Below are positions 1 through 64,000 of a DNA stretch of 64,000 nt, piece after piece. A program made the translations under genes and the position numbers. The notes under the pieces were generated by a model that was given only the letters and a program-made list of their open reading frames with translations, did not search any database and had not been told where the DNA came from. Source of the DNA: Spirogloea muscicola. Lineage: Eukaryota. How positions within the stretch are numbered: the first letter of the stretch is position 1; each line of letters opens with the position of its first letter. The stretch is from NCBI GenBank assembly GCA_009602725.1, contig WELB01000021.1:679502-743501 (forward strand), given 5' to 3'.

Positions 1-352
1 GCCCGCCGCTTCCATGGGGAGCCGGTGGACTCCCATGCAGCAGGGTCGCTAGCGCAGGTGTACCGCATGCGCTTGGCCGTCTCGCTGCAGAGGTCTATGG
101 CCCGCGCTCTGCACCTGCGTGCAGGCAGAGCCCTCGCTGCTGCCTCTGGCTCTGGCCAGGGGACCCGCTTCCAGGAACCCAGTCTCTCTGACCTGAGGCT
201 GCTTAGCAGGGGTTACTGAGGGCTTCGTAGCTGCTTCGTTTCTTTTCTGTGCTTGTTGTTCTTTGTACTTCCCCTGGCCCCTTCTCGTCCTTTGTTCATT
301 CTTTTCTGGGCTGGCTTTTTCCAGCCCCTATCCTCAATGGGCGAGCCCTTCT
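1..352 (+). mobile_element. 3' end of RLE-type (CRE-like) non-LTR retrotransposon: ORF C-terminus plus 3' UTR stem-loop module
   Basis: The ORF ends ...RMRLAVSLQRSMARALHLRAGRALAAASG...SLSDLRLLSRGY* (TGA 217-219), matching the post-RLE 'RLSVALQR' helix of CRE-like ORFs. It is followed by hairpin GGGCTGG-CTTTTT-CCAGCCC (~308-327) and ATGGGCGAGCCCTT. A near-identical copy lies at ~49703-49880. Confidence 0.8.
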
Positions 353-565
353 TCTTTCTCATAGCCATTGCGTAAATTGATAGAGCTGTTTCGTGCAGAG
401 AGGAAGGCGCCGCTAGATTGATTGGTGGCTGTGCTCTCGCTCCCCTGAGAGTTTCGCCGCCCGGCTGCGGCGCCCCCGTGCTCCTGGGGCTCCCCCCACC
501 GTTCCTTCTTTTCTGAGCTGCCAATCACAGCCATCGCCCTCGTTCTTCTATTGGGAGGCCTAGTC

Positions 566-960
566 AAGTATGACTCAGCCTCAACAGTGGCGTGTCAAGT
601 CAGGTCAGTTTATGGCGGAAAAGGAGCCACCGACGGGATGGGGCGCAACAAACGAAGAACGGGCTCGCCACAACAACAGCGCTGCCGTCCACCGATAGTC
701 AAGCACCGCTCGAGACTGCATTCGGCAAGCTCCCAGCAGCGCAAGAGGAAAAGAGGGGCTGGCAAAGCCAGCCCAAAAAAGAATGGACAAAGTCCAAAGC
801 CAAAGAAAGAGGAGCCGGAGAGAGGACTACTACAACAAACAGCTCTTTCAAGTGGAGGCCATGGCTGTGAGAGGCGAGCTCAAAGGAATGTATTACTACG
901 CAAAGCGGCGGCGCAGGGCAGGGTGGCGGGGGACTCCCGCCACCCCTGCTACTTCTCCCT
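566..960. repeat. Dispersed repeat 'Y' (AAGTATGACTCAGCCTCAACAGTGGCGTG...), interrupted by a retroelement tail
   Basis: The same sequence occurs at ~2787-3060 and inverted at ~12955-13185. Confidence 0.75.
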
Positions 961-1088
961 GTGCTTCCCTCTGCATCCTTTCTGTGTTTTTGCCGTGCTT
1001 TGTCGTGTAGTCCTTTTTCCGGCTCCTCTTTCTTTGGCTTTGGACATTGTCCATTCTTTTTTGGGCTGGCTTTGCCAGCCCCTCTTCT
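751..1088. repeat. Inverted repeat (~88 bp arms) formed by two opposite copies of a retroelement 3' tail
   Basis: 751-840 (AAGAGGGGCTGGCAAAGCCAGCCCAAAAAAGAATGGACAA...) is the reverse complement of ~997-1088 with only a few mismatches. Confidence 0.85.
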
Positions 1089-1796
1089 CTATGGGCGAGC
1101 ACTTTCAGCCTCCCTTTCATCTCATTCGCACCTGTGGCTTCTCCCTTGCAGCTACCTTGAATCCCCTTCTAAGCAACTTTTGACCAAGTGAAATTGGAAA
1201 AGAGCAGCTTGCGGCTTTGTTGGAACAGCTGGGCTTATGTTCGGAAAATCTTAGGGTTGACTGGCAGGGGTGGTGGAACACCTGCACATTCACTAACCAC
1301 TTGTCTGCACATGACAGTAGGTGCGTTAAAGCCACCACCTAACCAAAGCCTACGCAGCTCAAGGAGTCGTTCTCGGGCTGTGGGTCACTGTGAGCTACAC
1401 TTCTCACCTGTTATACAACCATGGGTCCAACATAGCCTGATGTTGGGCTGCCAAACTGGCTAGTGCAGTCTTTTGGCTTTGGCAGTAGCACCATGCCAAT
1501 ATACGACAGGTAAAGATTTTCGAAAGGAATTGCACTGTACAACCAGATAGCCAAACTTCTCCCGCTCGCCTTCCCAGGGCGGGGCCCGGGCGGCGAAGAA
1601 GGAGAATGACGCTTCCAGGAGAGGCGGGAAGTGTGTATTTAATGATGGAGGGCCTTAGAGAGCGGTGGCTGGGAGAGGCCAGCCCAGAGAAAAGAATCAA
1701 CAAAGCCAGCAGTGGAAGAGCTGTTTCTTACAGTGAAAGAGCTGTTTCTTTTAGGAAGAGCTTTCAGAAGAGCTTTTTCTTTTACATCTCTCATAC

Positions 1797-2350: not shown

Positions 2351-2354
2351 AATT

Positions 2355-2590: not shown

Positions 2591-2595
2591 TGGTT

Positions 2596-3277
2596 GGCTC
2601 GCTTGCCTCGTTGCGCATCGAGCGCTCATCTGGCAGTGGGGCAAGAGGACGCGCGGGCCTTGCCCCTTGGCCGTATTCTGCTACCGTGATGTCGCATTGA
2701 CAGTCGAGCGCTCGCTTTGACCTTTGACCATTCTTTCTTTCTCTGACCGAGCATGGACCCCCCACCTCGAGTCTGTTCAAAGCAGGAAGTATGACTCAGC
2801 CTCAACAGTGGCGTGTCAAGTCAGGTCATTTTTGGCGGAAGAGGAGCCACGACGGTATGGGCGCAACAAAAGGGCTGCCGTCCTCCTACCGTCGAGCACC
2901 GCTCGAGACTGCATTCGGCAAGCCACCAGCGGCGCAAGACCAGAGAGCACTTTCTTCTTCAGTAGCTGTGAGAGGCGAGCCCAAAGATGCGCAAAGCGCA
3001 AAGCGGCGGCGCAGGGCAGGGTGGCGGGGGACTTCCGCCAACCCCCAGGCCACTTCGCTCGCCACGTCCCACGGGGTGGGGCCCCAGCGCGGAGAAGAAG
3101 GCAGACTCTTCTGTGAACGGAATCGAGGTGGGGGTTCCATGCTCGGTCAAAGCTCAAAGCGCGCGCACGCGACTGAAAATGCGACTAAATGGTGGCAGAA
3201 TACGGCAAAGGGGCAAGGCCCGCGCGTCCTGCCAAATGACCGCTCGATGCGCAATAGCGAGGCAAGCGAGCCCAACG
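2596..3277. repeat. Dispersed repeat 'X' in inverted arrangement (2596-2775 vs ~3110-3277) enclosing repeat Y
   Basis: GGCTCGCTTGCCTCG...GGACGCGCGGGCCTTGCCCCTT...GACCGAGCATGGACCCCCCACCTCGA is mirrored at 3110-3277. A third copy is inverted at ~13195-13350. Confidence 0.75.
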
Positions 3278-3309
3278 GATGAGAGGGAGAAGAAAGTTGT
3301 ATCTGCGAG

Positions 3310-3552: not shown

Positions 3553-3781
3553 GGAGGGGAGGGGGTGAGAGAGCGCGAGCAAGCGCGAGAGTGAGTGAGA
3601 GAGCGCCGAGCGAGCGCAAGACAGACGGAGAGAAAAGAGAGATAGAGAGAGAGAGAGAGGAGGAGCGATGGATAGAAAAGAGGGAGTAAGGAGAGGGGGG
3701 AAGCGGCTGCTGGGGGGAGAGGGAGGAAAGAGAGAGGGGAGGGAGAGAGAGAGGGAGAGAGAGTGAGAGGGAGAGAGAGAG

Positions 3782-3840
<59 letters not shown>
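3553..3840 (+). repeat. Polypurine tract ending in a near-pure (GA)n microsatellite (~3771-3840)
   Basis: Direct reading of the sequence. Confidence 0.95.
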
Positions 3841-3843
<3 letters not shown>

Positions 3844-4092
3844 AGATGAGGCACCTATCATCCTCCAGCGCTCTCGCTCAAGGCCTTCTCATTCTTCCCA
3901 ATGCTGCCTCTTCGCAATGATGTGATGGTGCTGGTAGCTTAGCACCAAGATTGTCGTCATGAGGTCAATCTTGGCCAAATCCTGAAGCCGTTATGGGCGT
4001 GCTTGCGTGCTACCTTATAATCGTAATTGATGGTGGGGAGGCGTGGTGGTAGCTCGTGGTTCAGTATTGCACAAAGATATCACACAAACTAA

Positions 4093-4430
4093 GTGATGGA
4101 GGGCCTGAGTGACAAAGTACAAATGCAACCACATCTATATTACGCAGGACACAGCACAAGCAGGTGAAGATGGGGGAGGCGAAACCAATGGGAGGCCGGC
4201 AATTGTGAGCAGCAGCAAGCCCAGTGGTCAGCCGTGACGTCGGTCGCAAAGTATGGGCTCGAGAAGGTGACACGAGGCTTTACCTGCTGCTTGCCCAGAG
4301 GCAGCCTTCGTCAGCCCCGCCTCGCCGACCATCGGTGCAACGCTTGGCCCATGCGCGCTGCGGATGATGCCGCAGGTGGCTCGATGGCCGCTTGCTTGCC
4401 GCCTGAACGCGTCAGAAGCGACGTCCTTCT
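4093..4430. repeat. Dispersed ~340 bp repeat of unknown class
   Basis: GTGATGGAGGGCCTGAGTGAC...GGGCTCGAGAAGGTG...GCTTGCCCAGAGGCAGCCTTCGTCAG...GGCCGCTTGCTTGC is shared with ~27260-27592. Confidence 0.75.
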
Positions 4431-10995: not shown

Positions 10996-11859
10996 CGCGG
11001 GGCTGCTGCGAGACGACGCCGGGCGAGCTGTACGGCGAGCTTGAGCTTGAGCGAGATTGAGCGCGGAGCGGGAGGCGCAGCGAGGAATCTAATGGAATTC
11101 GGCCCGAATCTCGAGCGGGGCGTCGGCCTACCGGCTCGTGGAGGTGGCCGAGAGCAGCCAAGCTGGGCTGCGAGCCGGCGGCGGCGACGGCGCCGCGGCG
11201 AGGGTTCCGCCGCTTGGCGGCGGCCGCGGCCGGGGGGGGGGGGGGCCGGGCAAGGTGGGGAGTCGGGCTGGGCGCCGAGAATCGGAGTATAATGCTGCAT
11301 AGGCGACGCCTCCGCTCCTCAGCCGTCGCCACCCTACGGAGTCAGCGTACAAGCGGGAGCCGTCGTTGCGCAGAAGGCGAGCGGAGGAAGCGTGCGCCCA
11401 GGCGCGAGCAAAGGAAGAGTGCGCCCAGGTGCGCGCGGAAGGAACGGAGGAAGCTGCTGTGAGCTGCGGACGGACCCGTTGCTGGCCCGGCGGCCCGCCC
11501 AAATCCCGCCAAAATCCCAGGGGGGCCCCCAGCTGCCGCGGCGCGTGGCCCCGCGGGGGGCCGCGCCTCCCTCCCCGCCGGCCTTCCATCCGCTGCCCGC
11601 GCGTCTCGCCGCAACCGGGCCGCCCTCCCTCCTCACCACCACCCCGGCCCTTGACCAGGGTTGAACCTGGGCGCCCGCGCCTAATGGGCAGCTACCACGA
11701 TAGTCTCTCAATGGGCAGCCACCACGACATATCACGGCCGCCCGGGCGCGCGCCCTTCTCCCTCTTTATCTCTACATCATAAGTTCTGTGATTCTCTCTA
11801 AAAGAGATGGGCCCCCAGCCGCATACCGCCGACGCCGACTCCCGCACGGGTGCCATCGG

Positions 11860-12335
11860 AACAGCGCTTCCAGATTGACAGCAGTGGCTTTGAGAGGTCA
11901 GCCCACAGAAAGTGGCTCCCCTGATGAGGGCAAGGGCTGTGATAAAACAGGCCACAAAAAGACAAGATTTGAAGGGAAGGGGCCACGAGCCAGCGGCGTT
12001 GAAGTCAGCCGGCTCACCGCGCCTGCGGGACACATTGCGCCACGCACGCCCCGTGCACGTCCACAGCCAGGGGGACGAACTCATCTCCAGCCGGGTGGTC
12101 GGCGTGTTTGGACGCTTGCTGCGAGCGGCCGTCGTCGCAGCGTGGCCAGCCCGCGAGGCAGAGAGCCCCGGGTTGGAGAAAGTGGTTGGCTGGGAGAGGC
12201 CAGCCCAGAGAAAAGAATGAACAAAGTTCGAAGGGGCCAGGGAAAGCGCTAAAAGCACACAGGGAAGCAAGTAGCTACGAAATACTCAGTAACCCGTACT
12301 AAGCAACCGTAGGTCGAAGAAACAGTACTCTGACT
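11860..12335 (-). mobile_element. Nested CRE-like fragments: three tail modules and an RLE piece
   Basis: Reverse tail modules lie at ~11885, ~11935 and ~12187. The minus strand encodes GDEFVPLAVDVHGA and PADFNAAGS, and a GGGTTACTGAG stop motif is at ~12285-12295. Confidence 0.7.
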
Positions 12336-12529
12336 CCTGGAGCCGTGCCCCCCACGGCTCTTCTCCGCCCGAGGGCCCCCGGCCCGGTGAGGTGGCGGAG
12401 CCCTCCTCCACCCCTGCCACTCAGGCCAAGCAGTAGGCAGTACGGAACAAGAGGAAAGATTAGGGCGATGATTGGCTGTTATTGGCCAGCCCAGAAAGAG
12501 ATTGAACGCAAAGAATTAAATCTAAAGAA

Positions 12530-12950
12530 TGCTGCAGCACTGCATCGACTACCCCCACTGCGATTAGCTCCTGCCAGCTGCAGTCGACATCTTTGACTGT
12601 ATAGGTCCTCGATGCCACACTCTCGTCGAGAATTTTGCCAATCTTGGCACGACAAGCAGATGTGCTTCCGGCCGAGATGGGCTTGCCAGCTGCATATCAG
12701 TCATTCTTGCTTCATCGAGTGTCGGCCTTTTTGCAGCGTGCTCGGGCTCATGCTTTGCACCAGAGCTGGGCGAGCTCTTGTTGGTGGCAGAAGGGCTTGG
12801 AATTTGCCATCTAGTTCTCAAGCATCGATTAGCAACCTTTACGTGCTGACCCGTGGTTATTGAGCGGGTCATCTGCAGTGGTAATGTACGTCAATCAGAT
12901 GTGCTTGCCGTCGTACTTGGCCACTTTGGCCTTCCATTGTGACGACACAC
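12530..12950 (+). mobile_element. CRE-like RLE/C-terminal fragment, same family as 1925-2350
   Basis: It is colinear with 1926-2350, ends ...ASISNLYVLTRGY* and has a type-B tail. Confidence 0.75.
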
Positions 12951-13449
12951 ACAAGTCCTGCCCGTGCGCCGCCGCTTTGCGCATTCGTTCCGTACATCAC
13001 TTTGGGCTTGCCTCTCACAGCCATTGCCCTTCTTGACCCGCTGGGTGCTTGCCAATGCAGTCTCGAGCGGTGGTCGACCCTAAGAGGACGGCAGCACTTT
13101 GTTGCGCCCCATCCCGTCGGTGGCTCCTTTCCGCCATGACAGCCTGGCTTGATAAGCAATTGTCTAAGGCTGAGTCATGCTTTACTAGTGTGCATAGACT
13201 CGAGGTTGGGGGTCCGTGCTCGAGCATGGGTCAAGGCGAGCGCTCGACTAAATTGTGACATAACGGTAGCAAAATGATGGCGAAGGGCAAGGCCCGCGCG
13301 TCCTCTGGCCCACTGCCAGACCGCTCGATGCGCAACAGCGAGGCACGCCCATCGGAGGAGAGGTAGAAGAACTTTTACCCAAGAGAAGCAGCTTCTCTAA
13401 TGTACTGCACTGGCTTTGAGAGGCCGGCCTATAAGGAATGTACAGGTAA

Positions 13450-13850
13450 TAAACAGAAAGGAAGGCGGGCTATGCAGTCTGCCAAGCGGCAGGTGCCAAG
13501 GAGTGGAGTACGCTAGTCACCCTGCTGGCGACGATTTTTTTGTTAGAGAGATGCTGGCTCGACCTGCTCCAGCAGCTTGCACTGCATGCTGTATTTCGCC
13601 GTCAAGGCCAGCAGAGCGAGCAGCCCGGCTTCGAAGCCGCCGGGTCGCTCGCTCAATTGTACAGTATGCGCCTGCCATCTCTCTGCAGCGTTCTCTGGCC
13701 TTTGCGGCGCACTTGCGTGCAGGCCGCTCCTTGGCTGCTGGCTCCCATTTTCCACACTTGCGGGCAGGTAGCGCCTTGACAGCTAGCTCTGGGTCTCGAC
13801 GGGGCGACAAAGCTCCTCCTCTTCACTCCGATCTGCATTTGTAGACTATA
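13450..13850 (+). mobile_element. Degenerate CRE-like RLE/C-terminal fragment
   Basis: EYASHPAGDDFF, WLDLLQQLALHAVFRRQGQQSEQPGFEAAGSLAQLY and AISLQRSLAFAAHLRAGRSLAA match the copy at 48900-49260. Confidence 0.75.
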
Positions 13851-15059
13851 GATTATAGTGTGTCCCATTTGCAGAAGTCACAGAAAGTATGTTGGTGGTT
13901 CTGCAACTAGCAGCCCTGTCCAACCTTGTTCAAGGCTTTTGGGCTGATCTATGCAGTTCTAAGCATTTACAGACAAGAAGCACCTTACAAAGGGGATGCC
14001 CAGCCTTCGCTGATGCTGTTGTCTTACAAGAGGTGCACTCTGAAAGCATCAGAAGGCCATGGCTCCCGCAGAGAAAACAAACGCTTTCATGTCAGCTTTC
14101 TCACTCAATTAATGAGCCACTAATGAAGCACCCACCTCGCTTGACCTAAGAGCCTGATATGGACCTGCAGGGGACGCGATTCTTGCTACTGCAGGAGCTC
14201 TTGCTGGCGGCCATAATGTAAACATTGAGAGCTATACACACAAGCATGCCAAAGCTTACCTTCTTGTTGGGCCCATCATGTTGCTGTTGACAATGTTGTA
14301 CATGAATGAGCTCTAGATGGAGCTTACGCCAGCATTCACAACATGGTAATGACGTAGTAGGCTGGAAGTCGTGCCCAGTCAAGCGGTGTACCAGAAATAC
14401 AACGGCTAGAGATGTGGAGGGCTTGGCTTCTAGATGAAGAATCCTGAAAGGTCTGGTGAAGCCTTTGGCTTCGCAACGCCAAGAGGACGGCCAGCCTCAA
14501 CTTGCGGCTGCTGACAGAGATAACAGAGTTTTGATTAGTGATGGAGGGCCTGTGTGGCCAGGTACAAAGACAAGGGGTCATTGAGCAGGCACCCTTAGTT
14601 ATCACTACGATTTTTCGGCTCGTCTAAGTCTTGCTCAATGCTTTGTTCTTATCACAGAGAGAAAGCTCTTCCAATGTAAGGTAGTGGCTGCGAAAGGCCA
14701 GCTCAAAAAGTATGGACATAGTCTTAGGAGCCGAAAGGCGCCTAATCACCGCCCCCCCCCCTACTTGGCGACGATTTTCCGCCCTCTAGTTACTTAATTC
14801 TGCACTTGTTGACTAGAGCTTGTTGAGCGTCCATCCGCAGATATAGTGGAGAGTAGTTTCACGTGTAAGCGCTTTCCAGCCCTCGGGACCTTGTTCACTC
14901 TATATACGCTGGCCTCTTACAGCCATCGCCTCACTTTGGACAAGCTGGTTCTTCTTTCCTTTTGAGAGTGCTTCTTCACTGTTTGTGCTCGGCCTGCCCT
15001 GACTTCTGCCTCCTCTACTGGGAAAAAGAAGAAAGACGCTTCCAGGAGCATCGGCGCAT

Positions 15060-17310: not shown

Positions 17311-17710
17311 CCTTGTGAGTCTATCTTTTGGGGTGCCCTGTCCCTTGCTGGGCCTCGTACGCCGCGACCACGCCGCGACGTGACCAACGCTTACTGAGTA
17401 CCTGGAATTTCCGCGGAAACTCCAGGTGGGTGCACACCAGGTCGTGGCGCAGCCGCCAGAGCGTGGCGGCAGCGGCAGCGGCAGCGGGCCGCCACCGCCA
17501 CCGCCAAACACCCCCATCCCGCCGCCAGTCCGTCAGAAAGGCCCACCTAGAGGCCTGTGGAAGCAAAACAGAGTCATCGGCTCGGTGTTGCGCTCAACTC
17601 AGACCATTTCCACGACTTCTCGCGAGGCCTCCAGTGAGCGCCTGACCAAGTGTGGCTGATCGCCTTCTCATAGCCTGAGTGTTCTGAATACCTAAGTGCA
17701 CTCTTCCAGA

Positions 17711-34800: not shown

Positions 34801-34802
34801 GA

Positions 34803-49410: not shown

Positions 49411-49514
49411 ACGCCGCTCCGCGGACTGCGTAGTCCGCCTCCTCCGACGAGCATTGGGCGCTCCGAGAACCGACGCAGTCGAGTGGTGACGACGTCGGCA
49501 ATTAGCCGGGGCTG

Positions 49515-50220
49515 CTTGGTTTCTTCTTGTGCTTATTTTTCGTAGTGCTTCCCCTGGCCCCTTCGTTTCAATGCTCCCTAGCCTACGCCGTCCACACGCG
49601 AGCAGGCCGTGCTATGGCTGCCGCTGGGTCTCGGCAGAGTGCCTCTTTCCCTGCAACGAGCTACTCCGACCTGATGTTACTGAGCTTCCCTTTGTATCGT
49701 CGGGGTCACTAGCGCAGGTGTACCGTATGCGCTTGGCCGTCTCGCTGCAGAGGTCTATGGCCCACGCGCTGCACCCGCGTGCCGGCAGAGCCCTCGCTGC
49801 TGCCTCTGGCTCTGGCCAGGGGACCACTTCCAGGAGCCTAGCTTCTCTGACCTGCGGCTGCTTAGCAGGGGTTACTGAGTAATTCGTATCTGCTTTGTTT
49901 CTTCTTGTGCTTGTATTTCTTAGCACTTCCCCTGGGCCCCTTCTCGTACTTTGTTCATTCTTTTTTTGGGCTGGTTTTTCCAGCCCCTATCCTCGATGGG
50001 CGAGCCCTTTCTCTTGTGTTTTGTAGTGTTTTGAGGTGTAGTACTTTTTCGGCACCTCTTTCTTTCGCTTTGAACATTGTCCATTCTTTTCGGGCTGGCT
50101 TTGCCAGCCCCTCTTCTCTATGGGCGAGCACTTTCTCTTTCTTTCTTCTTGTCCTTTGTTCATTCTTTTTTGGGCTGGCTTTTTCCAGCCCCTATCCTCA
50201 ATGGGCGAGCCCTTCTTCGC
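49515..50220 (+). mobile_element. CRE-like C-termini followed by three tandem tail modules
   Basis: FPATSYSDLMLLS is followed by a copy of 43-219 ending GGGGTTACTGAG. Hairpins at ~49968, ~50092 and ~50172 are each followed by ATGGGCGAGC. Confidence 0.85.
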
Positions 50221-51795
50221 TGGGGCCCCCAGCCCAGCGCGGTGGCGAGGAGATTGGCGCGCCGGGTGTAAAGGCGGCCATCCGCCCCAGCAGTCAGGGG
50301 CGTGACGCCTCTGCACAAGACGACAAGCGCCGTCGGCCGGTCAACATCACCGGCAGCTCTTGCCCTGATTGCTTCCGACCAAAGTAACCGCGATCTGTTG
50401 TGGGGTAACCGCCGTCGCTGTGGGCCCGCTTTCTCCAACACCGCCCGCTAGAGCCTGGCGCGCGACGTCCGCCTGCTACTCCGATCTCTAGCCTCGGTGC
50501 ACCCGGGCCTGGTGTCAGCCCACGACACCTCATCAGACTCGTCGCGCTTCTCTTTGAAAGCGCCTCTTTCTACTTGCCATGACTCGGCTCAACGAGTCCG
50601 AAAGAGAGGAGCGGAGCATGTTAAAAAAGCATAGAAAAGAAAAAGAGCATGAAAGCATTGGAAGCCAAGCCGAGCCAGGACGTATTGCAGATGAAGTAGT
50701 AAAGAGTGGGGCAAAAGCCTTAGGCTAACAGGGGCTAAGGTGACAGGGCGAAAGCACAACTGAAGGGGGATAATCAGCACTCACGACTGATCACGTACAG
50801 ACTCAAAGGACTAGCCGGAGCACCGCCACAGCTGTCAGTTGCCTGGCTAAGTGCATGCCAAGTGCGCAGACTAATGTAGAGCCACGACAACAGCATGCAT
50901 TTCTGTCCTTGATGCAGCTTAGAACCACTGTACTTCTGATGCGCTTCCATGGCTTCTAAGACTGCAACCATGTGAGGAAGATTGACAAGTATGATGACTA
51001 GCCAGTTTCACTATACTCAGATTTGCGCCATCTTTCAGTAGTACATCTTTGTGTCAATGCTGGCCAAATTTCTGGAATGAAGTGCTGCACATGCTTACTT
51101 AGCGCACCTCATAGGCAGCTAAGGCTTCCTTGTGGCTTCCTTGTATACGCACAGATGACTACTTAGAACCCTACTGTAATCACTAACAATGAAAAGTCAC
51201 CGGTGCACTCTTACATAATGGGGCGCAACATGGACAGAACAATCAAGCAGCATTGGAGCATCGACTTGTCAAATTGCCAGGAGGAAGGTACTTTACTGCA
51301 AGCATCTGCCCCATGACCACTTTCTCAGAGTGAACATAACAGGAAGGACATGTACTCGGCTGCTGCATACAAGTTGTCCTTCGGCTGTCCCAGGACTGGT
51401 GACATGAGCTAACAGGAGTAGTCGTAACTGGAAAAATTTGATCAAAGAGAGTAGCAAACACTCATCAATTACAACCTGGTTACTTCATTGATAAAAGAAG
51501 CACGGCTGAGCTTTGCCGAACAGACTCAAATGTTGACAACTTCCATCAGACATTTTTACGGTACTGCCAAAGCTTCTGCCATACCTGGTCAGCTTAGATC
51601 TACAGAAAATGGCTGTCTTGAATATAAGCTTCAAATACAGGCATCATAACATAGGCAGAAGCAGCAGAAGCTTCTATTCTGTAGTAATTACCTGGCCCCA
51701 ATCAGCTGTATTGACATCTCATTCATGACTCTGCAGATATGACTTGCCCTCTTCTGTACCTTGGATAAAGCAAATGAATGTGGAAAAGATACTGA

Positions 51796-53850
51796 CTAAG
51801 ATATGTCTGCAGAGGCTGGGCAGAATTCAGTGTTCTGACGGTCATCTTCAGGAATGTGGAAATGGCACAAGATCCTGCGGCAGGTTACCTTGTTCTTGGT
51901 GCAGAGGAACTCATGGCTCCACTGCCACTCGATCTTCTTTCCATGTCATGCACCAGGGCATCGACTGCACCAGGGGTCCGACGATTGTGTGCAAACAGCG
52001 AAGCCGTGAAGATGGAGGTCATGCGGCCAGGACTAAGCGTTGCATATCCCACAGGAGCATCAACCATGATCACATCCCAGTCCACATCATACAGCTGGCT
52101 GCACTGACAGAGGACAGTGTCATGGCCCAAGGACAGGTATAAAATCTGGGATGGGTGCAAGGTCTGATCATGACATGGCAAGTGCTACAACACAGAACGA
52201 GGTGTGACAAGAGAGAAGTACAGGAGGCACAATTGAGGAGACATCTATCAGTGACAAGGACCGCTTAACATCGAGATGCTTGTCTGATAGATTACTTGGG
52301 TAGCTGTGTCAAGGTGATGTTGCACTTGCTTGACCCCACATCCTGATGGGGTGCACAATCACCACGTTTGGTTGCCTTTGCATGTTGCAGGAGCATGTTT
52401 GCTTGATGAAGTTCTGTCATATAAGAGACGTAGTACATCTCCAGGTAAAGTTTGGCCTTTGCCAGTTTCTGAAGCATAATTATGGAGACAATTGTTAATC
52501 TCTACCGAGTTGACCAGCTTGAGTGCTTTGCATCCAGTGTAAGTAGTACATATGCTTGCAGTGACTGCTAGGAGCTTGGCATAGGAATAACCTTCTCAAG
52601 ATTGACCATCCAAGATGATCATCCTCCAGGAAGACTGTACGACCATCCACATTCAGTGATGCCCACATTGGGCTGTCCAGCCCAAAGACGAGCATGTTGC
52701 ACGGTCCCCGTGGCTGGAGAATGTCGATCGTGATCAAGATCAGATCATCTCCTAGTACGCAAGCAAACACACATGACAAGCACTTATAGCTCTAGCTTTT
52801 GACAAGCTTGCAACCTTCTATTATGACATTAGTGAGCACTCACTGATTTGGACACCCCTGCATGCTTCTCGACTAGTCATAGGGCTGCCAGCAGGTGTTG
52901 ACTGCATGTTTGCGCAAATCTGACAAGCTGCAGTAAGGAGGTTCTCACCAAAGATTGCTGAGGCGTGACTTTGGAGGTGGCATAGTGAACAAGAGCCCTA
53001 GCGGCTTCTTTTGGAGGGCAGATCCCTTTCCAGCCTGCCCTTGTAACCTCTTGGAAGCCAGGCTGTATGCAGAATGTGACAGAGAAGATTTGAAATATCG
53101 TGGACTGAAATTAGGCTCTGAGAATAACATGGGGCAGGGCAAATGGAGCAATCTCTTCAAAGGCACTGCATTAGCTAAGATTGATGAAAAGCTGCTGGCT
53201 AGACATTCCTTTGAATCACATGAAGAGCAGATTGCAATGAGCTCTGTGACACTGCCAAAGCACATTGCAGGCAAGGCACCTAACACGCGATGCTATGGCT
53301 CATGACATGGTTCTGACGGCCCTTCCAGCTTCCAAGTGCTCGTGTCATGTAAGGCAATGCCCTCGCTGTTGGTTGCTCGAGCCCGCCATGGATAGCTCAA
53401 ACTCGCCAGAGGTGCATGGAGCTAAGTAGCCCAATGCTGAGGGAGGTCAAGCATCACACCGCAGAAGTACGATGGCTTACTCGGTGAGATTGACCTCGAG
53501 CGTCGCGCGGTCAGCCCTCCAGATGCCTCTGCTGGTGGGACCGGCGTAGAGAATGGCACAAACGACTCTGTGATGGCAGAAAAAGGCACGAGCTCGAGCT
53601 TGAGTCGAGGAGAGGGGAAGCTCAGTCGCAAGCTATTCTGAGCAACCGACTGCCCCTACGCTGTCATGTCCTTGTCATGCGTCCTCTCAGTCACGACGTT
53701 CGTGTATGTACGCCAAGTGCCGGGCAGCAAGATTGCCTGTTAAGCCGTCAACTGGCGACTCAGGCTCCTAGGGCAGCGCGTCGCTAAGCCGGCCAGGATG
53801 AAGGCGGCGGCCAGCCCCACGAAACGGCCGACGGAGCGCGACGAAGACAT
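51796..53850 (-). pseudogene. DUF579 polysaccharide O-methyltransferase (GXM/AGM/IRX15 family), disrupted
   Basis: The signal-anchor-like MSSSRSVGRFVGLAAAFILAGL is followed by PKEAARALVHYATSKVTPQQSL, RGPCNMLVFGLDSPMWASLNVDGRTVFLEDD, CNITLTQLP and LYDVDWDVIMVDAPVGYATLSPGRMTSIFTA...DALVHDMER. After a frameshift at ~51935 it reads IEWQWSHEFLC...LCHFHIP. A further frameshift lies near 52740. Confidence 0.85.
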
Positions 53851-54247
53851 CGCCGCGAGCGCAGCGCCCACGCCGACTGCACGTCTCTCCCACGAAGCTG
53901 GCAGGCCGCCGAAGGAGGGGCGGCCAGCTCCGAGCTTTCCGGCCCCTCTGCAGATTGGTCCAGTCTTTTCTTTCTTCCTTTCATGACCGCTGGTCTGAGC
54001 TGGCCCAATGTACTAGCTCCTAAAGAAGTGGCTCTCCTAGGAAAGAATGGCGCGCCATGAGAGAAGAGGGGGCTGGCCAAGCCAGCCCAAGAGTCGAGTT
54101 GACAAGGTAAACCCAAGATTTCAGCTTCTGTTTTTTTTTGGGTGTTGGCCTGCCTGTCTCGTCACGCGGTGCTGGAGAATGCTCACTGGGCAGCTCGAGG
54201 CTTTTCACAGCCCTTGCCGCCTTCTAAGCACAGAAAAGAAACGAAGC

Positions 54248-54524
54248 CTCCAACTCGTTCTCGACGAGGAAGCGGCCCGCTTCTCGACGCCGACGACGAC
54301 GCCGCTGAGGCCAACATCCTTGGTGAAGGTGGTGTCGGTGACGCGGGCCTTGAGCTTGAGGTCCTCGACGCGCCAGGCGGCGGTGGCGATGGCCTCCTGG
54401 GTGTACGAGTTGAAGGCGGCCTTGACGGACGCCCGCCCGGGGCCCAGGTACCGGTCCGTCTGGCCCTCCGACGGGAACGCCTGCAAGTCGTAGTCGTTGC
54501 CCGTGCGGAACGACTTGGCGGCCA

Positions 54525-54525
<1 letters not shown>
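54248..54525 (-). pseudogene. OEP24: OEP24-like chloroplast outer envelope pore, first-exon fragment with frameshift
   Basis: ASVKAAFNSYTQEAIATAAWRVEDLKLKARVTDTTFTKDVGLSGVVVGVEK continues as (P)GRFLVENE after adding one base at ~54278. This matches the OEP24 N-terminal pattern DxKLRAxxTDxT...LxGLxLxVEKPGxFxV. Downstream exons were not seen. Confidence 0.65.
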
Positions 54526-54558
<33 letters not shown>

Positions 54559-54592
54559 NCGGCGGCGGCAGCGGCGGCGGCGGCGGCGGCGG
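54526..54592. repeat. (GGC)n trinucleotide tract containing an N (likely assembly join)
   Basis: Direct reading; N at 54559. Confidence 0.9.
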
Positions 54593-55017
54593 GCGGGGCT
54601 GGCGGGGAGCTGTTTGCCGCCTCCCCCGCTCTGCCATAGCATCTTCAGGCCCCGCAGTCGCTGCTTAGCTCGTAGTTTGGCCCCTTCAAACCTTGTCATT
54701 CATTTCGGGCTGGCTTCTCACAGCCCTGGCACCCATTGGGAGAGCCACTTCTTCTTTCTCGTTGGTGCACCCTAGACCGAGCCTATTTCCTCTCCCTTGG
54801 CTGGGATTCACGCAGCTACGACGGCGGAGGCGTCGACTTCCCGGGTCTCGCTTGCCGTTGGCCCGCGGCCTGCCGGTCGCCCAGCCCTACCGAACCATCT
54901 TGTCAAAATTCCCTTTTGGGCTGGCTTTTCACAGCCCTTGCCGCCACTGGGAGAGCCACTTCTCTCACAATTGCAAGCGCGGCCAGAATAACTGGTGGCT
55001 GGGAGAGGCCAGCCCAA

Positions 55018-55592
55018 ACCGCGCCACAGTCGCCGAGGAGCTCCATGCGGCCTTCCCCACCCTGCTGCCGTTCTTTCGGCTGGCCTACGGCCAGCCCAGT
55101 GATCTCCTATAGCGGCATGGAGCCAGAGGGGTGGAGGTCCTTCAGTCTTCCACGGGCACGCGTCAGGGGGACCCGCTGGCGGGGTTTTTCTACGCGCTGG
55201 CCCACGACCGCGCCCTGAAGGCCACGGCAGCTGCTCACCCGGGCGTCCTCATGCCCACGTATGCCGACGACACCACCCTGGTCGGGCAACCAGACGAGGT
55301 CTTGGCTGCCTTCGCCACCCTCGAGGAGCAGCTGAAGAAGATCCGCCTGGACATCCGAGCGTCGAAGTGCAGCGCTTGGTCTCCACAAGGGTTGCCAGCC
55401 CTCCTCCACCTTCCCTCCTGCTGTCAGACACCAGCCGGGGGCCTCACACTCCTCGGGGTTCCATTGGGCTCACCTACCTTCGTGGACGAGCAGCTGCGCA
55501 GCAAGCTGCAGGAGCACCTCAAGCCGGCGGCCCGCCTCCCTGAGCTGCACGATATGCAGCTAGGGCTTGCCATGCTGACGAGCAGCATAAAC
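55018..55592 (+). mobile_element. CRE-like reverse transcriptase fragment (from just after domain 3 through domain 7)
   Basis: NRATVAEELHAAFPTLLPFFRLAYGQPSDLL*...SSTGTRQGDPLAGFFYALAH...MPTYADDTTLVG...LDIRASKC...GLTLLGVPLGSPTFV. Confidence 0.9.
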
Positions 55593-55783
55593 CTCTTGAT
55601 AAGACCATGGTAAATGGGAGAGCTCTTGCGATGCACCATGTCATGCCAGATAGATTTTATATGTGCAGGGCAGGAAGAGAAGCATTGCAAGTTGTCCCGG
55701 TCCTTTAGTCTGTCATTTCTGCCAGGCCACGTTGCAGTGACATGTATGGATTGCCACTGAGCTGTTTTGTGTGCTTACTCCAG

Positions 55784-56739
55784 GAAGAGATTACAATCAT
55801 GCTCGACATCCTCCAGCAGCGGGGTCCTACCCATGTGCTTGCTTTTGGGTTGGCCCAAGTCAGCCCACTTTGGGCAGCACTGAATGCTGGTGGTCGCACA
55901 GTATTTTTGGAGGATTCACTCGATTGGATGGCGGCCACGAATCTGGTTGGTGACTTTTTACCAACTTCCGTCCTTTTGTTTGCTGCAGCATGCATGCGAC
56001 TTGCTGCGTGCACACTACTCAGCAGAGCCATCAGCTTGAAGTCGTCTAGACGGGAGAGTGACTGACATGCCCAATGTCATGCTCATAGAAAGTGATGAAG
56101 GCTGGCATCAACTTGGAAATGGGCCATACTTGTCTACAAGACAATACTCTCTCAAGCACACGAGCTGATGAGTTATGCATGCGAAGGCGGTGAGGACGGG
56201 GGTCTGCAAGCCGCATCAAGATCTGGAGTCAAGCGAGTGCAACCTCACTTTGACTCAGCTCCCTAAGTACGACCAGACTTGACACCCAACAGGCCATCTT
56301 CCTACTTCTTGAAGGCACAAATTCATTGTTCAGCTGTGCATTCCTTCTTACACAGTTGTTGTTGGTATTGTGTTGACACCATGTATTCCCTTGGTGCTTT
56401 CCTTGAGCCATGACCTTACCGATGCGTCAGTGCAGGCAACTCTTTCACGTGGATTGGGATGTTATCATCATTGATGCTCTTGTGGGCCAGCGACACAGCG
56501 CTCGTGGGCGGATGGCTCTCATCGTCACAGCTGCGGTCTTTGCCCACAACAGACAGTCACCTGGTGCAACTGACGTGCTGGTACACGATGTTACCAGGAA
56601 TGTGGAGCAAGATTGGAGCGATGAGTTTCTTTGTCTTTAGAACAAGGTTGCCTGCTCAGGGCGCTTGTGCCACTATAATGCATCTCGATATTTCAATACC
56701 ACGTCCTCCCTTTTGACCTTTCCCCATGTAGTGATTTGA
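55784..56739 (+). pseudogene. Second DUF579 (GXM/AGM-like) copy, 5'-truncated and disrupted
   Basis: It reads EEITIMLDILQQRGPTHVLAFGLAQVSPLWAALNAGGRTVFLED, then a frameshifted middle exon ending ECNLTLTQLP, then LFHVDWDVIIIDALVG...GRMALIVTAAV...TDVLVHDVTRNVEQDWSDEFLCL* (premature TAG 56638-56640) NKVACSGRLCHY. Intron positions are the same as in copy 1. Confidence 0.85.
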
Positions 56740-57274: not shown

Positions 57275-59321
57275 CTTTTTCGACTTCTCCCACCACTCTA
57301 TCGCCTTCTCCCACCACAAGAGTGGTGGCAGATCTCCCACCACAAGAGTTGTGGGAGAACGAATCTTCTTTTGTCTTCTTGAAGGGATCGCAGACATGCG
57401 CCGTAGAGTCGATGTGCGCCAGGAACCTGCACAAGTAGCAGCCTCGGTTTTAAGAGTGAAAGACGCTTCCAGGAGAGGGCGGTGGCTGGGAGGGGCCAGC
57501 ACAGAAGAAAGAACGAACAAAATTTGATGGGGCCAGGGAAAGCGCTAAAGCTAGCACACATGGTATCAAGCAGCTACGAAATACTCAGTAACCCCTGCTA
57601 AGCAGCCTCAGATGTTTAGGGCCCCTCTCTTACCTTTAGCCTCGAGCTGCCCACGTGTCCGGCACCGCGTGATGGGACAGACAGCTAAAGGCTGAAAGCT
57701 TGGGGTTGCCTTCAATACTTGATCCATTCTACTGGGCTTGCCTTTCGTCTACTTCCCTATGGACCCGGGAAGTGGACGCCTCCGCCGTCGTAGCTGCTCA
57801 AATTCCAGCTAAGGAAATGTCAAAGGGAGTCGACTCGGTCTAGGGTGCAGCCCCAAGAGAAACAGCCCTTCCAATTTTCGGCAATGGCTGTGAGAGGCAG
57901 AAGGCGCGCAGTGCACAATAGTGAAGCGGAGGCCAAATCACAGCACGGCCAGCACCTGCGTGCTGGCCGTGCCGTGCTCTACCCGCAGCCTCTGGCTTTC
58001 GTCTGGGGGATTGCTTCCCGGCTGCTAGTCTTTCGGATTTGCGGCTCCTCACTCGTGGTCACTCGTGACGCCTAGTATCTGCTTTTTGCGGCATCCGGGC
58101 CTTTCCTAACCCGTCCAGTCCTTTGGGCTGGCCTCTAACAGCCACTGCTGTCAATTCGTAAGAGCTGTCTCCTTCACTGTGTCATCCATCCTACCCAAGC
58201 TCTGAGAGTCCTTTTCGGCCCATTCTGACCTTGCTCATTTTTTTCGGGCTGGCTGTTCACAGCCCTCGCCCCCCTTAGGAGAGCCACTTGTCCTTTTGGA
58301 AGAGCTCACTTCTTTTCTCAGTCTAGGGCATTGGCTGTGAGAGGCCAGCCCAAAGAATTGAACAAAGTTGATAGGGCAGGAAGGCGCAGACGGACAGATG
58401 ATTTTCAGTGACTTCTGCCAAAACTTGGCCGCAGACCAGTGCATAAGCTCCGCTTGGCCTCCATTATGGATTATGCCCACCGTGCACAGTCTCCCTCTCT
58501 TAGCTATTGTCCCTTAGCATAGGGCTTCGCTTAGTTCAGGCCCATCGTTTGCACTAGCTTCTGCCTGAATAGAGCATTTGCTCCACATGGCCTCCCTTTT
58601 GTTTCATGTACACCGCGCGTCTTCTCTCCTGGAGAGGAGCAGGTGGTGGTCGAGAACATCCACCCACTTTAAGAAGGTGGCTGGGTCGAGAAGATCGCCG
58701 AACAGCGGATTCACAGGCAGAATGTAATGTGTGGCTTGGGCAAGCTGTGCGAGTATGAGCAAGTAAGTGGCTTGTACTCCGTTGGGCTGGCCTCTCCCTC
58801 TTCTCATAGCCATTGCCCCCATTAGTATAGCTTCTTCTGTCCGAGGTGGGGTGAAGGTTTCTATCTTGAGGGTCTCCTGGGATCGCGGAAGCACTGTGGG
58901 AGATGTGCTAGCAACAGGCACACCGCCACTCCAGTGGAATTATTGTTGGCCGTCAGCAAGTCAGAATTATTTTGACAAGGTCAACAAGGGGCCGGAGAGC
59001 GACTACCACGAAGTTACATCCAAGCGGGGGCGAGAAAAGCAGCTCTCAAAGGGGTGAGGGCTGTAAACAGCCAGCCAGCTTAGACTGTACAAGGTAAGGC
59101 GAGGTGGAGAAGAAGTGACGAGAGGAGAAGCGACTGTTGTCAAGACCACAGCAGGCACCCAAAGGCGAGAGGAGAAGTGACTGTTGTCAAGACCATAGCA
59201 GGCACCCATTGTGGTCTTCAACAAATTGTCACCGGCGCCTTTGGACCTTGTTCATTCTTTGTGGGCGAAATGGCTTCTTCCCAGCCCTCGCCTTTGCACC
59301 TGAGCTGCTTCTCCTCGGCTT
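57275..59321 (+). repeat. ~2 kb direct duplication, copy 1 (mosaic of CRE-like tails and fragments)
   Basis: It is colinear with 61615-63605 from CTTTTTCGACTTCTCCCACCAC to GCTTCTCCTCGGCTT, with scattered substitutions and small indels. Confidence 0.95.
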
Positions 59322-60354: not shown

Positions 60355-60645
60355 GAATGTCGGCGGAGTTCTCCGCTGCCACCGAGAAGCCAGCCTCCAC
60401 CAGGATGCCATGCATCGCATCCCGGAGGCGGTCGTGGGCCGCTGTCCGCTCTCCGCCGTGGGAACAGCGCAGAACAAGAGTGGCCAGCTCCCCAGGCTCG
60501 GCCCCTCGCTCGCCACCTTCGCACTGACGCACACCCTGGAGGAATGGCGGCGGCAGGCCCAGGAGCCGGTGGACGGCACTGCGAAATACCTCGTCCGGGA
60601 GAGTGAGGGCGTCGTTGAGGGGGAGGGCCACGCCGCGGCCCCCAC
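60355..60645 (-). mobile_element. CRE-like post-RT CCHC region fragment
   Basis: GAAAW / ALPLNDALTLPDEVFRSAVHRLLGLPPPFLQGVRQC...VLRCSHGGERTAAHDRLRDAMHGILVEAGFSVAAE matches the C..GG.R..RHD.LRD motif preceding RLE. Confidence 0.8.
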
Positions 60646-61614
60646 AAAGGTCTGAAACGGCCGGAAGGCGCAAGAAGCAAGCAATCTGCAGTGCCGCGGT
60701 TTGCCGCGGGGCCGCACATTTGCGGCCGCGGACGCGGCGCGGTGGCGCGGCACGCTCGGCTGCGTTGTCGTCTCATCGTGGTCGGGAGCGCGCTCCGTTG
60801 CGTCGGGGGTCTCTTCAACGCGCGCGAAGGGCGGGAAGGTGACGCGTCGAGATTCTGTCAATGCCTCCGCTTTGCACGCAGTCAGCCGCTCAAGTCGCCC
60901 GCCGGATGTCCGACGTCGATTCCTACTTATGGTTGTATACCAAAAGGAAGGGTCTTTCTCCTCGTTTCCTCGGCTTTGCGCTTTCCGCCTGATTTGGCCT
61001 CATTTGGCCTCCATTATATTTGAGTGGAAGCGCACGGCTTCCTTCTGTCCCCTTCATCGCTGATTAAAGAAGAAATGAGCGCCATTGTATGCCGGTGGGG
61101 GTTGGGGGCCTGTAGTGTTGACACTTACTGAAGTACAAGGTTCACTAAATCAGACCAATCAAGCTTAGCGGCAAGGTTCCACTTCATCTTGCACACCCTG
61201 CACAATACGATTTGCAGTTTGTGATCTGGTGCTCACAAATAGGCGACTATTCAGGCCAAGTACTGAGGCAAGTCCGTCCTACTACTCGCTCGAGAATGAG
61301 GATGCCCACTGACAGCTTCCATAGGGTCCTACTGACCATTCTAGTACTTGCCCACGCCCGCTAAGTTGGCAAATCTCTTCCTCCCCCGGCGCTACAAGAG
61401 ACCCTTACGTAGTGGAACCTCCACTTGGCAGAGGCTTTCTGCAGCTTAACGTTTTCGAGTTCATTCAGACTACTCAATATGAAAAGTCCCCCGGAATTTA
61501 ATCAAAGCTATGGCGTTGGCCTTAATCGATCCTCTGCAGCAGCTGCAGCACAACTCTGGTCTTGAGAGAGGTAGGCTATGGAGGCTGGGAAGTGACCTTG
61601 ACATGATCTTGACT

Positions 61615-63605
61615 CTTTTTCGACTTCTCCCACCACTTTATCGCCTTCTCCCACCACAAGAGTGGTGGCAGATCTCCCACCACAAGAGTGGTGGGAGAAG
61701 GTATCTTGTTTTGTCTTCCTGAAGGGATCGCAGACATGCGCCGTAGAGTCGATGTGCGCCAGGAACCTGCACAAGTAGCAGCCTCGGTGTCTAGAGTGAA
61801 AGACGCTTCCAGGAGTGGGCGGTGGCTGGGAGGGGCCAGCACAGATGAAATAATGAACAAAGTTCGATGGGGCCAGGGAAAGCGCTAAAGGCAGCACACA
61901 TGGTATCAAGCAGCTACGAAATACTCAGCAACCCCTGCTAAGCAGCCTCAGATGTTTAGGGCCCCTCTCTTACCTTTAGCTTCGAGCTGCCCACGTGTGC
62001 GGCACAGCGTGATAGGACAGACAGCTGAAGGCTGAAAGCTTGGGGTTGCCTTCAATACTTGATCCATTCAACTGGGCTTGCGTTTCGTCTACTTCCCTAT
62101 GGACCCGGGAAGTGAACGCCTCCGCCGTCGTAGCTGCGCAAATTCCAGCTAAGGAAATGTCAAAGGGAGTCGACTCGGTCTAGGGTGCAGCCCCAAGAGA
62201 AACAGCCCTTCCAACTTTCGGCAATGGCTGTGAGAGGCAGATGGCGCGCAGTGCACAATGGTGAAGCGGAGGCCAAATCACAGCACGGCCAGCACCTGCG
62301 TGCCGGCCGTGCCGTGCTCTAGCTGCAGCCTCTGGCTTTCGTCAGGGAGATTGCTTCCCGGCTGCTAGTCTTTCGGATTTGCGGCTCCTCACTCGTGGTC
62401 ACTCGTGACGCCTAGTATCTGCTTTTTGCGCCATCCGGCCCTTTCCTAACCCGTCCATTCCTTTGGGCTGGCCTCTCACAGCCACTGCTGTCAATTCGGA
62501 AGAGCTGTCTCCTTTACTGTGTCATCCATCCTACCCAAGCTCTGAGAGTGCTTTTCGGCCCATTCTGACCTTGCTCATTTTTCTCGGGCTGGCTGTTCAC
62601 AGCCCTCGCCCCCCTTAGGAGAGCCACTTATCCTTTTGGAAGAGCTCACTTCTTCTCTCAGTCTAGGGTATTGGCTGTGAGAGGCCAGCCCAAAGAATTG
62701 AACAAATTTTATAGGGCAGGAAGGCGCAGACGGACATGATTTTCAGTGACTTCTGCCAAAAGTGCGCCGTGCATGAGCTCCGCTTGGCCTCCCTTATGGA
62801 TTATGCGCACCGTGCACAGTCTCCCTCTCTTAGCTATTAGGTCCCTTAGCATAGGGCTTCGCTTAATTCAGGCCCATCTTTTGCACTAGCTTCTGCCTGA
62901 ACAGAGCATTTGCTTCACATGGCCTACCTTTCGTTTAATATACACCGCGCGTCTTCTCTCCTGCAGAGGAGCAGGTGTTGGTCGAGAACATCCACCCACT
63001 TTAAGAAGGTGGCTGGGTCGAGAAGATCGCCGAATAGCGGATTCACAGGCAGAATGCAATGTGTGGCTTGGGCAAGCTGTGCGCGTATGAGCGAGTAAGT
63101 GGCTTGTACTCCATTGGGCTGGCCTCTCCCTCTTCTCATAGCCATTGCCCCCATTAGTATAGCTTCTTCTGTCCGAGGTGGGGTGAAGGTTTCTACCTTG
63201 GGGGTATCCTGGGATCACGGAAGCACTGTGGGAGATATGCTAGCCACAGGCACACCGCCACTCCAGTGGAATCATTGTTGGCCGTCAGCAAGTCAGAATT
63301 ATTTTGACAAGGTCAACAAGGGGCCGGAGAGCGACTACCACGAAGCTACATCCGAGCGGAGGGGGGCGAGAAAAGCAGCTCTCAAAGGGGTGAGGGCTGT
63401 AAACAGCCAGCCAGCTTAGACTGTACAAGGTAAGGCGAGGTGGACGAGGCGAGAGGAGAAGTGACTGTTGTCAAGACCACAGCAGGCACCCGTTGTGGTC
63501 TTCAACAAATTGTCACCGGCGCCTTTGGACCTTGTTCATTCTTTGTGGGCGAAATGGCTTCTTCCCAGCCCTCGCCTTTGCACCTGAGTTGCTTCTCCTC
63601 GGCTT
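61615..63605 (+). repeat. ~2 kb direct duplication, copy 2
   Basis: See 57275-59321. Confidence 0.95.
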
Positions 63606-63699
63606 TGCAGTAAGACGGCGTCAGCCATTTCAGCTGGAGACGAGGCAGCCCAACCAAGTTGGCAAGTTGTGCCCGGCGAGAGTCGTAAGAAAGAAAGAC

Positions 63700-64000
63700 T
63701 CTTCAGTAGAATGGAATGTGGCTCTCCCAATGGGGGCAAGGTTTGTGAACAGCCAGCCATAAAAGATTGACTATCTTCGAAGGGGCCAAAAGCGCTCTCA
63801 GAGCTTGGCCGGTAGGATGTATTACTCAGTAAGCACGAGTGAGGGCCGCAAATCAGAAAGACTAGAAAGAAAGTGGCTCTGCCAAAGAAAATGGGCGAGG
63901 GTTTTAGGGTAGATGACGACGGCCGTGATTGGTCAGCCCAGTAAGGAATGACAATGTCCGAAGGGGCCAAAAAAACATTAAAGCATGAGAAAGTCAAGCT
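63700..64000 (-). mobile_element. Two head-to-tail CRE-like 3' tails
   Basis: Reverse tail modules lie at ~63740 and ~63930, and the minus strand reads SLSDLRPSLVL/TACTGAG at ~63826-63865. Confidence 0.65.

Follow-up and report, generated by a model that had tools for sequence, protein, structure and literature searches.

A conserved module at the end of RLE-type retrotransposons

The window analysed here (64,000 nt of Spirogloea muscicola, contig WELB01000021.1, positions 679,502 to 743,501 of the forward strand; all coordinates below are counted from its first letter) holds pieces of host genes, with WRKY, NAC and IRX15/GXM domains, among which a short sequence module of about 90 nt recurs on both strands at about one copy per kb. 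This module is the poly(A)-less, fixed 3′ terminus, the last piece, in retrotransposons that lack long terminal repeats (non-LTR) and are of the restriction-like endonuclease (RLE) type in this streptophyte genome. A preliminary description, made from the letters alone, had proposed such an identity, and it is borne out by the position of the module in sense behind an open reading frame (ORF) for a reverse transcriptase (RT) and an RLE, and by its fixed terminus.

From 5′ to 3′, the order is the ORF end, a variable untranslated region (UTR) of 40-60 nt, an A-box (GGCCCCTTC), a B-box (CTTGTYCAT) with a T-tract, the sequence GGGCTGGC-YTYTCM-CAGCC, a spacer of 11-15 nt, a GRARAGC-like terminal box and about 7 pyrimidines. 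A nucleotide profile trained on 27 copies from the window gave 87 matches at E≤10 and 66 at E<0.01, the threshold used for counted copies, while ten block-shuffled windows gave no match at E<0.01 in nine cases and one match in the tenth. Since a 2-kb direct duplication (57275-59321 versus 61615-63605, 92.6% identical), which consists mostly of tail stubs, accounts for 8 matches, the number of independent copies after its removal is 58 (28 on the plus and 30 on the minus strand). The 19 module positions first listed all bear GGCTG...CAGC(C) on the strand reported for them. The terminal box was recognised in 36 of the 58 copies, at a spacing of 11-15 nt in 34 of these, and the two remaining spacers (23 and 24 nt) are probably false matches; many copies are partial. 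AAAAA was found within 25 nt after the box in 0/36 copies, and the next 10 nt are mainly pyrimidines.

The only RT fragment found in the window (RVT_1, 55017-55592, plus strand) contains one in-frame stop. Its nearest named relatives are S. muscicola gene models (81%, 93% and 69%), followed by Closterium proteins; R2 is a distant match only (E ~1e-6). In a 50-row tree, the window RT joins two S. muscicola models (100/99), and the named rows of the 43-row set around it (Closterium, Riccia and Spirogloea) are all streptophytes. The long relatives carry an RT, a CCHC knuckle, a PD-like..D nuclease and a QRxSxxLQR C-terminus. Using a profile of 16 long relatives to assign window fragments to the RT, knuckle and C-terminal parts, RLE C-termini were found at 4-162, 1879-2194, 15136-15389, 39349-39450, 48971-49264 and 49703-49822, and a knuckle at 60359-60670. 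A regular expression for the RT-CCHC-PD..D motifs matched 3 of the 10 relatives tried, and an N-terminal zinc-finger-like motif was present in 5 of the 10; the window itself holds fragments only and no 5′ part of an element. The motifs QGDPLG and QRxSxxLQR are presumably CRE-like. The sequence searches for relatives returned no named CRE, R2, R4, NeSL or HERO sequence, the ESM Atlas yielding unnamed RVT_1 clusters only, and the label CRE is used here for a likeness, not for a placement in that clade. ORF fragments of this retrotransposon are listed as S. muscicola gene models (proteins P0001, P0003, P0008, P0011 and P0036).

The shared ORF end, SDLxLLTRGY followed by a stop, precedes the module. 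Its stop-region motif lies sense-upstream of the module in 17 of the 58 copies, compared to 5 antisense-upstream, 3 downstream and 6% at random, at a distance of 56-144 nt (mostly 76-110). In most copies no such motif is recognisable; these are probably stubs too short to reach the ORF end.

Rfam gave nothing credible over the window at E≤1, nor on three module-rich stretches at E≤10, and possible likenesses to the histone 3′ stem-loop with its purine box and to the P3/L3 of hepatitis delta virus (HDV)-like ribozymes had no support there. The exact module pattern was absent from the metagenome and viral contigs searched. On 80 metagenome loci with related RTs, of which only 8 reached the ORF end, the best profile match had an E-value of 1.7. 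A literature search covering titles and the starts of abstracts, with Repbase, Dfam and paper supplements outside its scope, returned no description of an element with this module. The module is apparently an undescribed and very abundant variant of RLE long interspersed nuclear element (LINE) ends. Two metagenome relatives in the same protein group end otherwise, in a telomere-like (CCCTAA)n repeat (locus L010, 4229-4483) and in (TTA)n (locus L018, 2829-2889), showing other tail types within that group.

Fixed 3′ terminus and variable 5′ truncation

We used contigs from two runs of one DNA sample (run shares 0.35-0.41) to follow the ends of the module and of a second tail type, E, beyond the window. 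This sample may be the window's own source, so the contig results for these termini are not independent of the window, and summed contig depth is read as a relative hint rather than as a copy number. Behind position 50136, directly after GAGCACTTTCT, 197 and 212 contigs of the two runs leave the stretch, with a flank agreement of 0.37 and a consensus that starts with TCTT. At the upstream side of the B-box, several hundred contigs diverge with an agreement of 0.47-0.55, which reflects many different UTRs. Summed depth was 1.26M in the module bin, 24k in the adjacent UTR bin and 163 in the flank; along family B it fell in the 5′ direction from 214k to 83k to 7k over about 200 nt. In the window, 71 merged chains are 19-958 nt long. 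Together with the loose ends at 50136 and at 16912-16914 (the E tail), these results show a fixed 3′ end with variable 5′ truncation. Flank agreement across module and E ends was 0.33-0.41, so there is no single fixed target site, and no Rfam family was found at the module flanks when a repeated host sequence was looked for as a target. Helitrons also have a 3′ hairpin, which is followed by a terminal CTRR; a Helitron end was rejected here, as the terminus is GAGCACTTTCT and lies behind an RT-RLE ORF end.

Chains, nested copies and head-to-head joins

The tails and modules in the window (families A to G, with a K variant of the module) are arranged as follows.

265-356, plus: module (A-box, B-box, GGCTGGC..CAGCC and terminal box) ending the family-A tail 28-356
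755-958, minus: family-F module (830-891), then a family-G tail of about 95 nt to 755, absent from two other X+F copies
1039-1151, plus: family-G module with an E-like terminus directly after it
1604-1722, minus: K-variant module interrupted at 1628-1656 by the 29-nt end of a C-type tail, which lies between 9-nt imperfect direct repeats (1619/1657)
1706-1784, plus: four terminal boxes head-to-tail, GAAGAGCTGTTTCTT-like
1781-2587, plus: chain of a family-C RLE tail, a family-B UTR and modules 2485 and 2537
11858-12332, minus: chain of an A tail with module 12206, an RLE core fragment and modules 11953 and 11904
12472-13037, both strands: head-to-head join of module 12492 (minus) with a C tail and F module 13004 (plus)
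13381-13946, both strands: head-to-head join of module 13430 (minus) with a B-like tail and degenerate module (plus)
14656-14953, both strands: head-to-head modules 14704 (minus) and 14906 (plus)
15136-15560, plus: RLE tail of family E that has no hairpin and meets module 15598 (minus) tail-to-tail
15755-15900, plus: 61-nt module stub (15799-15859) within an older module, with a 19-nt direct repeat (15780-15798/15860-15878, 18/19 identical)
16322-16914, both strands: tandem modules 16442/16372 (minus), head-to-head with a D tail and module 16717 (plus), then E tail 16779-16914 (plus)
17097-17314, plus: C tail, then a partial module
32584-33149, both strands: pile of four plus-strand modules and one minus-strand module with little or no RLE sequence
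34799-34988, minus: A-like tail that stops at the B-box, without the stem
40438-41436, both strands: back-to-back pair of degenerate, module-bearing B-like tails
47366-47729, plus: C tail (47481-47672) between imperfect direct repeats of about 54 nt that open with a pyrimidine tract
48459-49416, minus: three-tail head-to-tail chain with modules 49316, 48824 and 48507 and RLE C-terminal coding sequence (48971-49264)
49553-50223, plus: chain of a module-less tail, an A tail with module 49968, a G tail with module 50092 (terminus 50136) and A-type module 50172
54666-55018, both strands: modules 54707 (plus), 54918 (plus) and 55015 (minus), the last two tail-to-tail
55017-55592, plus: RT fragment (RVT_1) beginning at the 5′ edge of module 55015 (minus)
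57275-59321, plus: first copy of the 2-kb duplication, with 8 module matches
60359-60670, minus: degraded zinc-knuckle part of an ORF of this same type, lacking a tail
within 61799-62731, minus: A tail with K module 61842; module 62244, into whose stem an E end is joined
within 61799-62731, both strands: D tail with modules 62465 and 62586 (plus); module 62691 (minus)
63114-63972, both strands: partial modules 63116 (plus), 63413 (minus), 63551 (plus), 63759 (minus) and 63939 (minus)

As this list indicates, stubs are concatenated, which is a new observation here and, in our view, of more interest than a reading of the module as a structured handle. Of the 47 termini counted, 13 have a stub of the same strand next to them (at most 30 nt away), compared to 11% at island-matched random points (p=0.0013), while abutment of an opposite-strand stub (6/47, one pair being counted twice) did not exceed the 10% at random points (p=0.35). 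Gaps of at most 150 nt make up 22 of the 57 intervals between modules versus 8 expected. At 10 of the 15 joints listed on contigs, an E end is linked with a short C tail of the same strand, and at several joints module pieces lie between the two sides; one of the three X+F copies has a G tail after its F terminus. The four serial terminal boxes at 1706-1784 likely reflect repeated re-priming. Two stubs lie within older modules, each between short direct repeats; in addition, an E end enters a stem at 62238, and an A end enters a loop at 357. Head-to-head neighbours (n=21) lie within 40 nt of each other in 8 cases, with no flanking duplication, against an expectation of about 3.6 (Poisson p=0.03) that is a rough estimate and depends on the profile edges. 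Three to four candidate target-site duplications (TSDs) were seen, of 9, 19, about 54 and possibly about 73 nt, although systematic scans were barely above the null.

Tail families and sister tails

The preliminary description held that families with the same module do not align in their coding DNA. This was not found: the tails of A, B and D can be aligned with one another, coding ends included, at 63-87% across 100-160 nt, E aligns with several of them, and A to E end in similar peptides, SDLxLL(T/S)R(G/V/D)(Y/H). Divergence between families is confined to the 40-60 nt or so between the stop codon and the A-box. From these alignments, the main tail families are diverged members of one radiation, and a shared 3′ end is then expected by descent. 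The closest UTR pairs (2485/48824 and 308/49968) also have the same module variants. The copy at 62465 (plus) has D coding sequence with a B-type UTR end and a B-type module, which suggests a tail swap between subfamilies.

Not all tails of this radiation end in the hairpin module. The E tail at 16779-16914, which reached a summed depth of 0.4-2.0M, has an equally sharp end and random flanks: 40, 95 and 189 contigs leave at 16912-16914, with an agreement of 0.33-0.36 and a loose-end consensus that starts with pyrimidines. It is without the hairpin and retains an A-box-like GGCCTCCCTTTC, TCAT and a terminal GCGC plus CTTCTCT. E-type termini also occur at 15429-15560, 16208-16264, 36331-36373 and 62762-62958, where they are common to several upstream sequences, and the E terminus is apparently as abundant as the module. 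Family C, whose tails are abundant, has a third type of end, again without a hairpin. What module and E tails have in common is the A-box and a pyrimidine terminus. No tRNA and no credible Rfam match was found in the window, hence no Pol III (tRNA, 5S or 7SL) head of a short interspersed nuclear element (SINE) on a tail, and the cross-mobilisation of SINEs suggested earlier was not shown.

A model for the spread of tails

We consider it fairly likely that these sequences stem from a radiation of RT-RLE (CRE-like) LINEs whose tails are copied by pyrimidine-primed target-primed reverse transcription (TPRT) with early stops, template jumps and same-strand nesting. What we observe is the position behind the ORF end, the fixed terminus, the unrelated flanks, the short copies, the same-strand chaining and a few insertions within modules; from these we infer the priming chemistry, the template jumping and the landing preference. 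In such a process, the RLE would nick the target, and the YTTCT end of the RNA, whose predicted 3′ end is GAGCACUUUCU without poly(A), would pair with a short pyrimidine tract there. Reverse transcription would start at the module end and usually stop within 50-400 nt. Older modules would present three pyrimidine tracts on the same strand, namely the B-box, the loop and the terminal tract, and because they are rich in such tracts, new stubs would land in them. By analogy to a modified R2 RT, the enzyme, on reaching the end of one template, may jump to the 3′ end of another RNA, and such jumps would lead to head-to-tail chains of mixed subfamilies and to tails swapped between subfamilies. In this model, primary sequence is probably what the element's protein mainly recognises in the module, and the sister families C and E would do without the hairpin.

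Several results weigh against this model. The window holds fragments, and no full-length element was seen in it. No recognised neighbour lies within 30 nt of 28 of the 47 termini, and same versus opposite strand taken alone (13 versus 6) does not differ significantly (p=0.17). The clustering of modules is not significant if insertions are tolerated in only about 20 kb of the window (p=0.82). Few stubs have flanking direct repeats: 8/71 chains and 5/41 clusters came to the 95th percentile of the null, and in a second TSD scan 10 of 52 termini reached that percentile, several of them being other module copies. Genome-wide, the flanks are near random, so nesting is a preference at most. Similarity upstream and similarity of the module are weakly linked overall (Mantel r=0.11, p=0.14, 25 copies), and on filled sites alone, priming by microhomology is indistinguishable from an untemplated pyrimidine tail.

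Four alternatives were compared with this model, of which the first three can in part be combined with it. It is possible but unlikely that the RT has to bind the GGCTG/CAGCC hairpin as a structured RNA handle and that the hairpin is for that reason conserved across families, which is close to the common RT-recognition signal first proposed. Such a handle would fit the five stem pairs, 92% intact in 34 clean copies, the terminal-box spacing of 11-15 nt in 34 of 36 copies, the far wider occurrence of the module than of the adjacent UTR (depth 1.26M versus 24k), and the stem-loops common in stringent LINE tails (PMC3747384). The structural tests gave no support, however. None of the stem pairs has a double change in the 34 clean copies; in 46 copies, one of six pairs does, which was equalled by 472 of 500 shuffles, although invariant pairs are uninformative on structure either way. 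RNAalifold returned no consensus structure for the module. Folded singly, 15 of 50 copies form the stem at p>0.5, and the mean fold z-score was -0.83 for the sense and -0.87 for the antisense strand. A pseudoknot between the loop and the terminal box (67% paired) was not above shuffles, and an apparently covarying pair in alignment columns 32/39 is probably due to the alignment register and was set aside. Across tests, the stem is 83-92% paired, and three loop positions are nearly fixed as well (G in 44/46, C in 42/46 and T in 44/46), so that the proposed pattern of a kept stem with a varying loop does not hold. The E and C tails have no hairpin and are abundant.

Alternatively, GGCTGGC-N-CAGCC may also be a DNA site that is bound by an element protein, so that the elements target their own old 3′ ends; this we regard as unlikely. 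It would agree with conservation at the sequence level that includes unpaired positions, with the insertions within modules that have direct repeats, with the E end in the stem at 62238 and the A end in the loop at 357, and with the target specificity of most RLE clades, for which transposons are among the targets (PMC4640811). Flank consensus agreement is, however, just 0.33-0.37 over hundreds of contigs, landing positions differ across the module, and there is no opposite-strand excess.

We find it similarly doubtful that these are ordinary dispersed LINEs with a conserved UTR, whose piles result from selection sparing genes and random nesting elsewhere. Host gene remnants in the module-free gaps, the heterogeneous flanks, and the loss of significant clustering once 20 kb or less of the window is taken as tolerant would all be expected of such passive accumulation. 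Same-strand abutment above the island-matched null, the serial terminal boxes and the E-to-C joints would not be expected under random nesting.

Finally, a terminal inverted repeat (TIR) of miniature inverted-repeat transposable elements (MITEs) or of another kind of DNA transposon, next to which RLE stubs have inserted, is very improbable despite the many inverted pairs and the inward-pointing modules at both ends of two copies of repeat X (about 400 nt, see below), since the module follows an RLE ORF end in sense and at a nearly constant spacing, unrelated DNA begins sharply at its 3′ edge and not at its 5′ edge, the modules at the distal end of X differ between copies, and there is no consistent TSD.

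Comparison with known elements

Some relatives of the window RT, from Closterium among others, show an N-terminal C2H2/C2HC finger and a CCHC..PD-like..D region. Trypanosomatid CRE1/CRE2, SLACS and CZAR have a single ORF with an RT and a C-terminal RLE, zinc-finger-like motifs and TSDs of varying size; they occupy one position in spliced-leader genes and generally end in poly(A) (PMC12278014). In contrast, the window elements have unrelated flanks, with an agreement of 0.33-0.41 and thus no fixed insertion site, and a pyrimidine end: no CRE-type poly(A) was found within 25 nt of the 36 recognisable termini, and the loose ends begin with pyrimidines.

Nesting and truncation are shared with fungal elements, Cnl1 of Cryptococcus forming nested arrays with many 5′-truncated copies (PMC9942834), and FoTeR and MoTeR having truncated copies that outnumber full ones and a common REL motif order (PMC12857005), which is also that of the window elements. 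Cnl1, MoTeR and FoTeR are subtelomeric or telomere-inserting, whereas the window copies lie among host genes. Stringent LINE tails and their SINE partners (L2, CR1, RTE and maize-type L1) keep a conserved 3′ block despite differing upstream UTRs, and their stem letters vary with compensatory changes (PMC3747384). The module is like them in its conserved, non-poly(A) 3′ block behind differing UTRs; unlike them, it has an invariant stem without the compensatory changes typical of that type, and no SINE head was found in the window.

Serial end-to-end template jumping is described for a modified R2 RT (PMC8594491), and tumour L1 bridges made from two RNAs consist of two inverted, 5′-truncated L1s joined at their 5′ breaks (10.1101/2024.08.27.596794). 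These are in vitro or rare somatic events, while comparable structures look common in the assembled genome here. It is a tentative and rather doubtful extension of the model that the ~90-nt end serves both as an RNA handle and as a DNA landing pad, and that the head-to-head joins between different subfamilies go back to two RNAs that were primed at two DNA ends and became joined at their truncated 5′ sides. If this were so, an RLE radiation would have given up an external target for its own old tails, and the joins would be a germline counterpart of the two-L1 bridges, able to reshuffle the genome.

RLE LINEs are mostly low-copy and site-specific (PMC4640811), and here one group of them stands at about one copy per kb among host genes, in a likely sister lineage of land plants. 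If the ~90-nt end suffices for priming and one protein takes several tails, it would be a compact natural template handle, and the genome would preserve an extensive natural record in which template jumps and nested insertions can be followed. This would bear on the loss of target specificity in RLE elements and on tools for RNA-templated insertion. Should the piles be merely passive, they would still be a major unannotated repeat with fragments present in gene models.

Other repeats and host genes in the window

Repeat X (560-748, 2592-2954, 3106-3294 and 13029-13371) has no RLE coding match and could be a 5′ UTR or another mobile element. Its distal end, into which three different modules point, starts with the module-like TTGGGCTCGC; its other end bears an F-type module, accompanied in two copies by a GC-rich hairpin. 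Repeat Z (54758-54847, 57762-57856 and 62102-62196) has one common start, TGCACCCTAGACCGAG, which directly follows two different modules, and a similar string comes after module 61842; the start is possibly a natural 5′ end or a preferred site.

The host domain pieces are WRKY (23603-24502, minus strand), NAC (44350-44838, minus strand) and IRX15/GXM (55709-56062, plus strand). About 120 nt separate the last of these from the RT fragment before it, and a diverged repeat of this piece lies at 51863-52734. A coding-looking exon (54208-54699, minus strand) that follows a (GGC)n tract gave no credible Pfam match and has a module on each side. An array of units of about 238 nt at 28236-29970, with three copies at 95% and older copies, is unrelated to the module. 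A two-copy repeat (79%) joins 4093-4415 with 27260-27596 and 3554-3872 with 26911-27030, and GA-rich tracts lie near both places.

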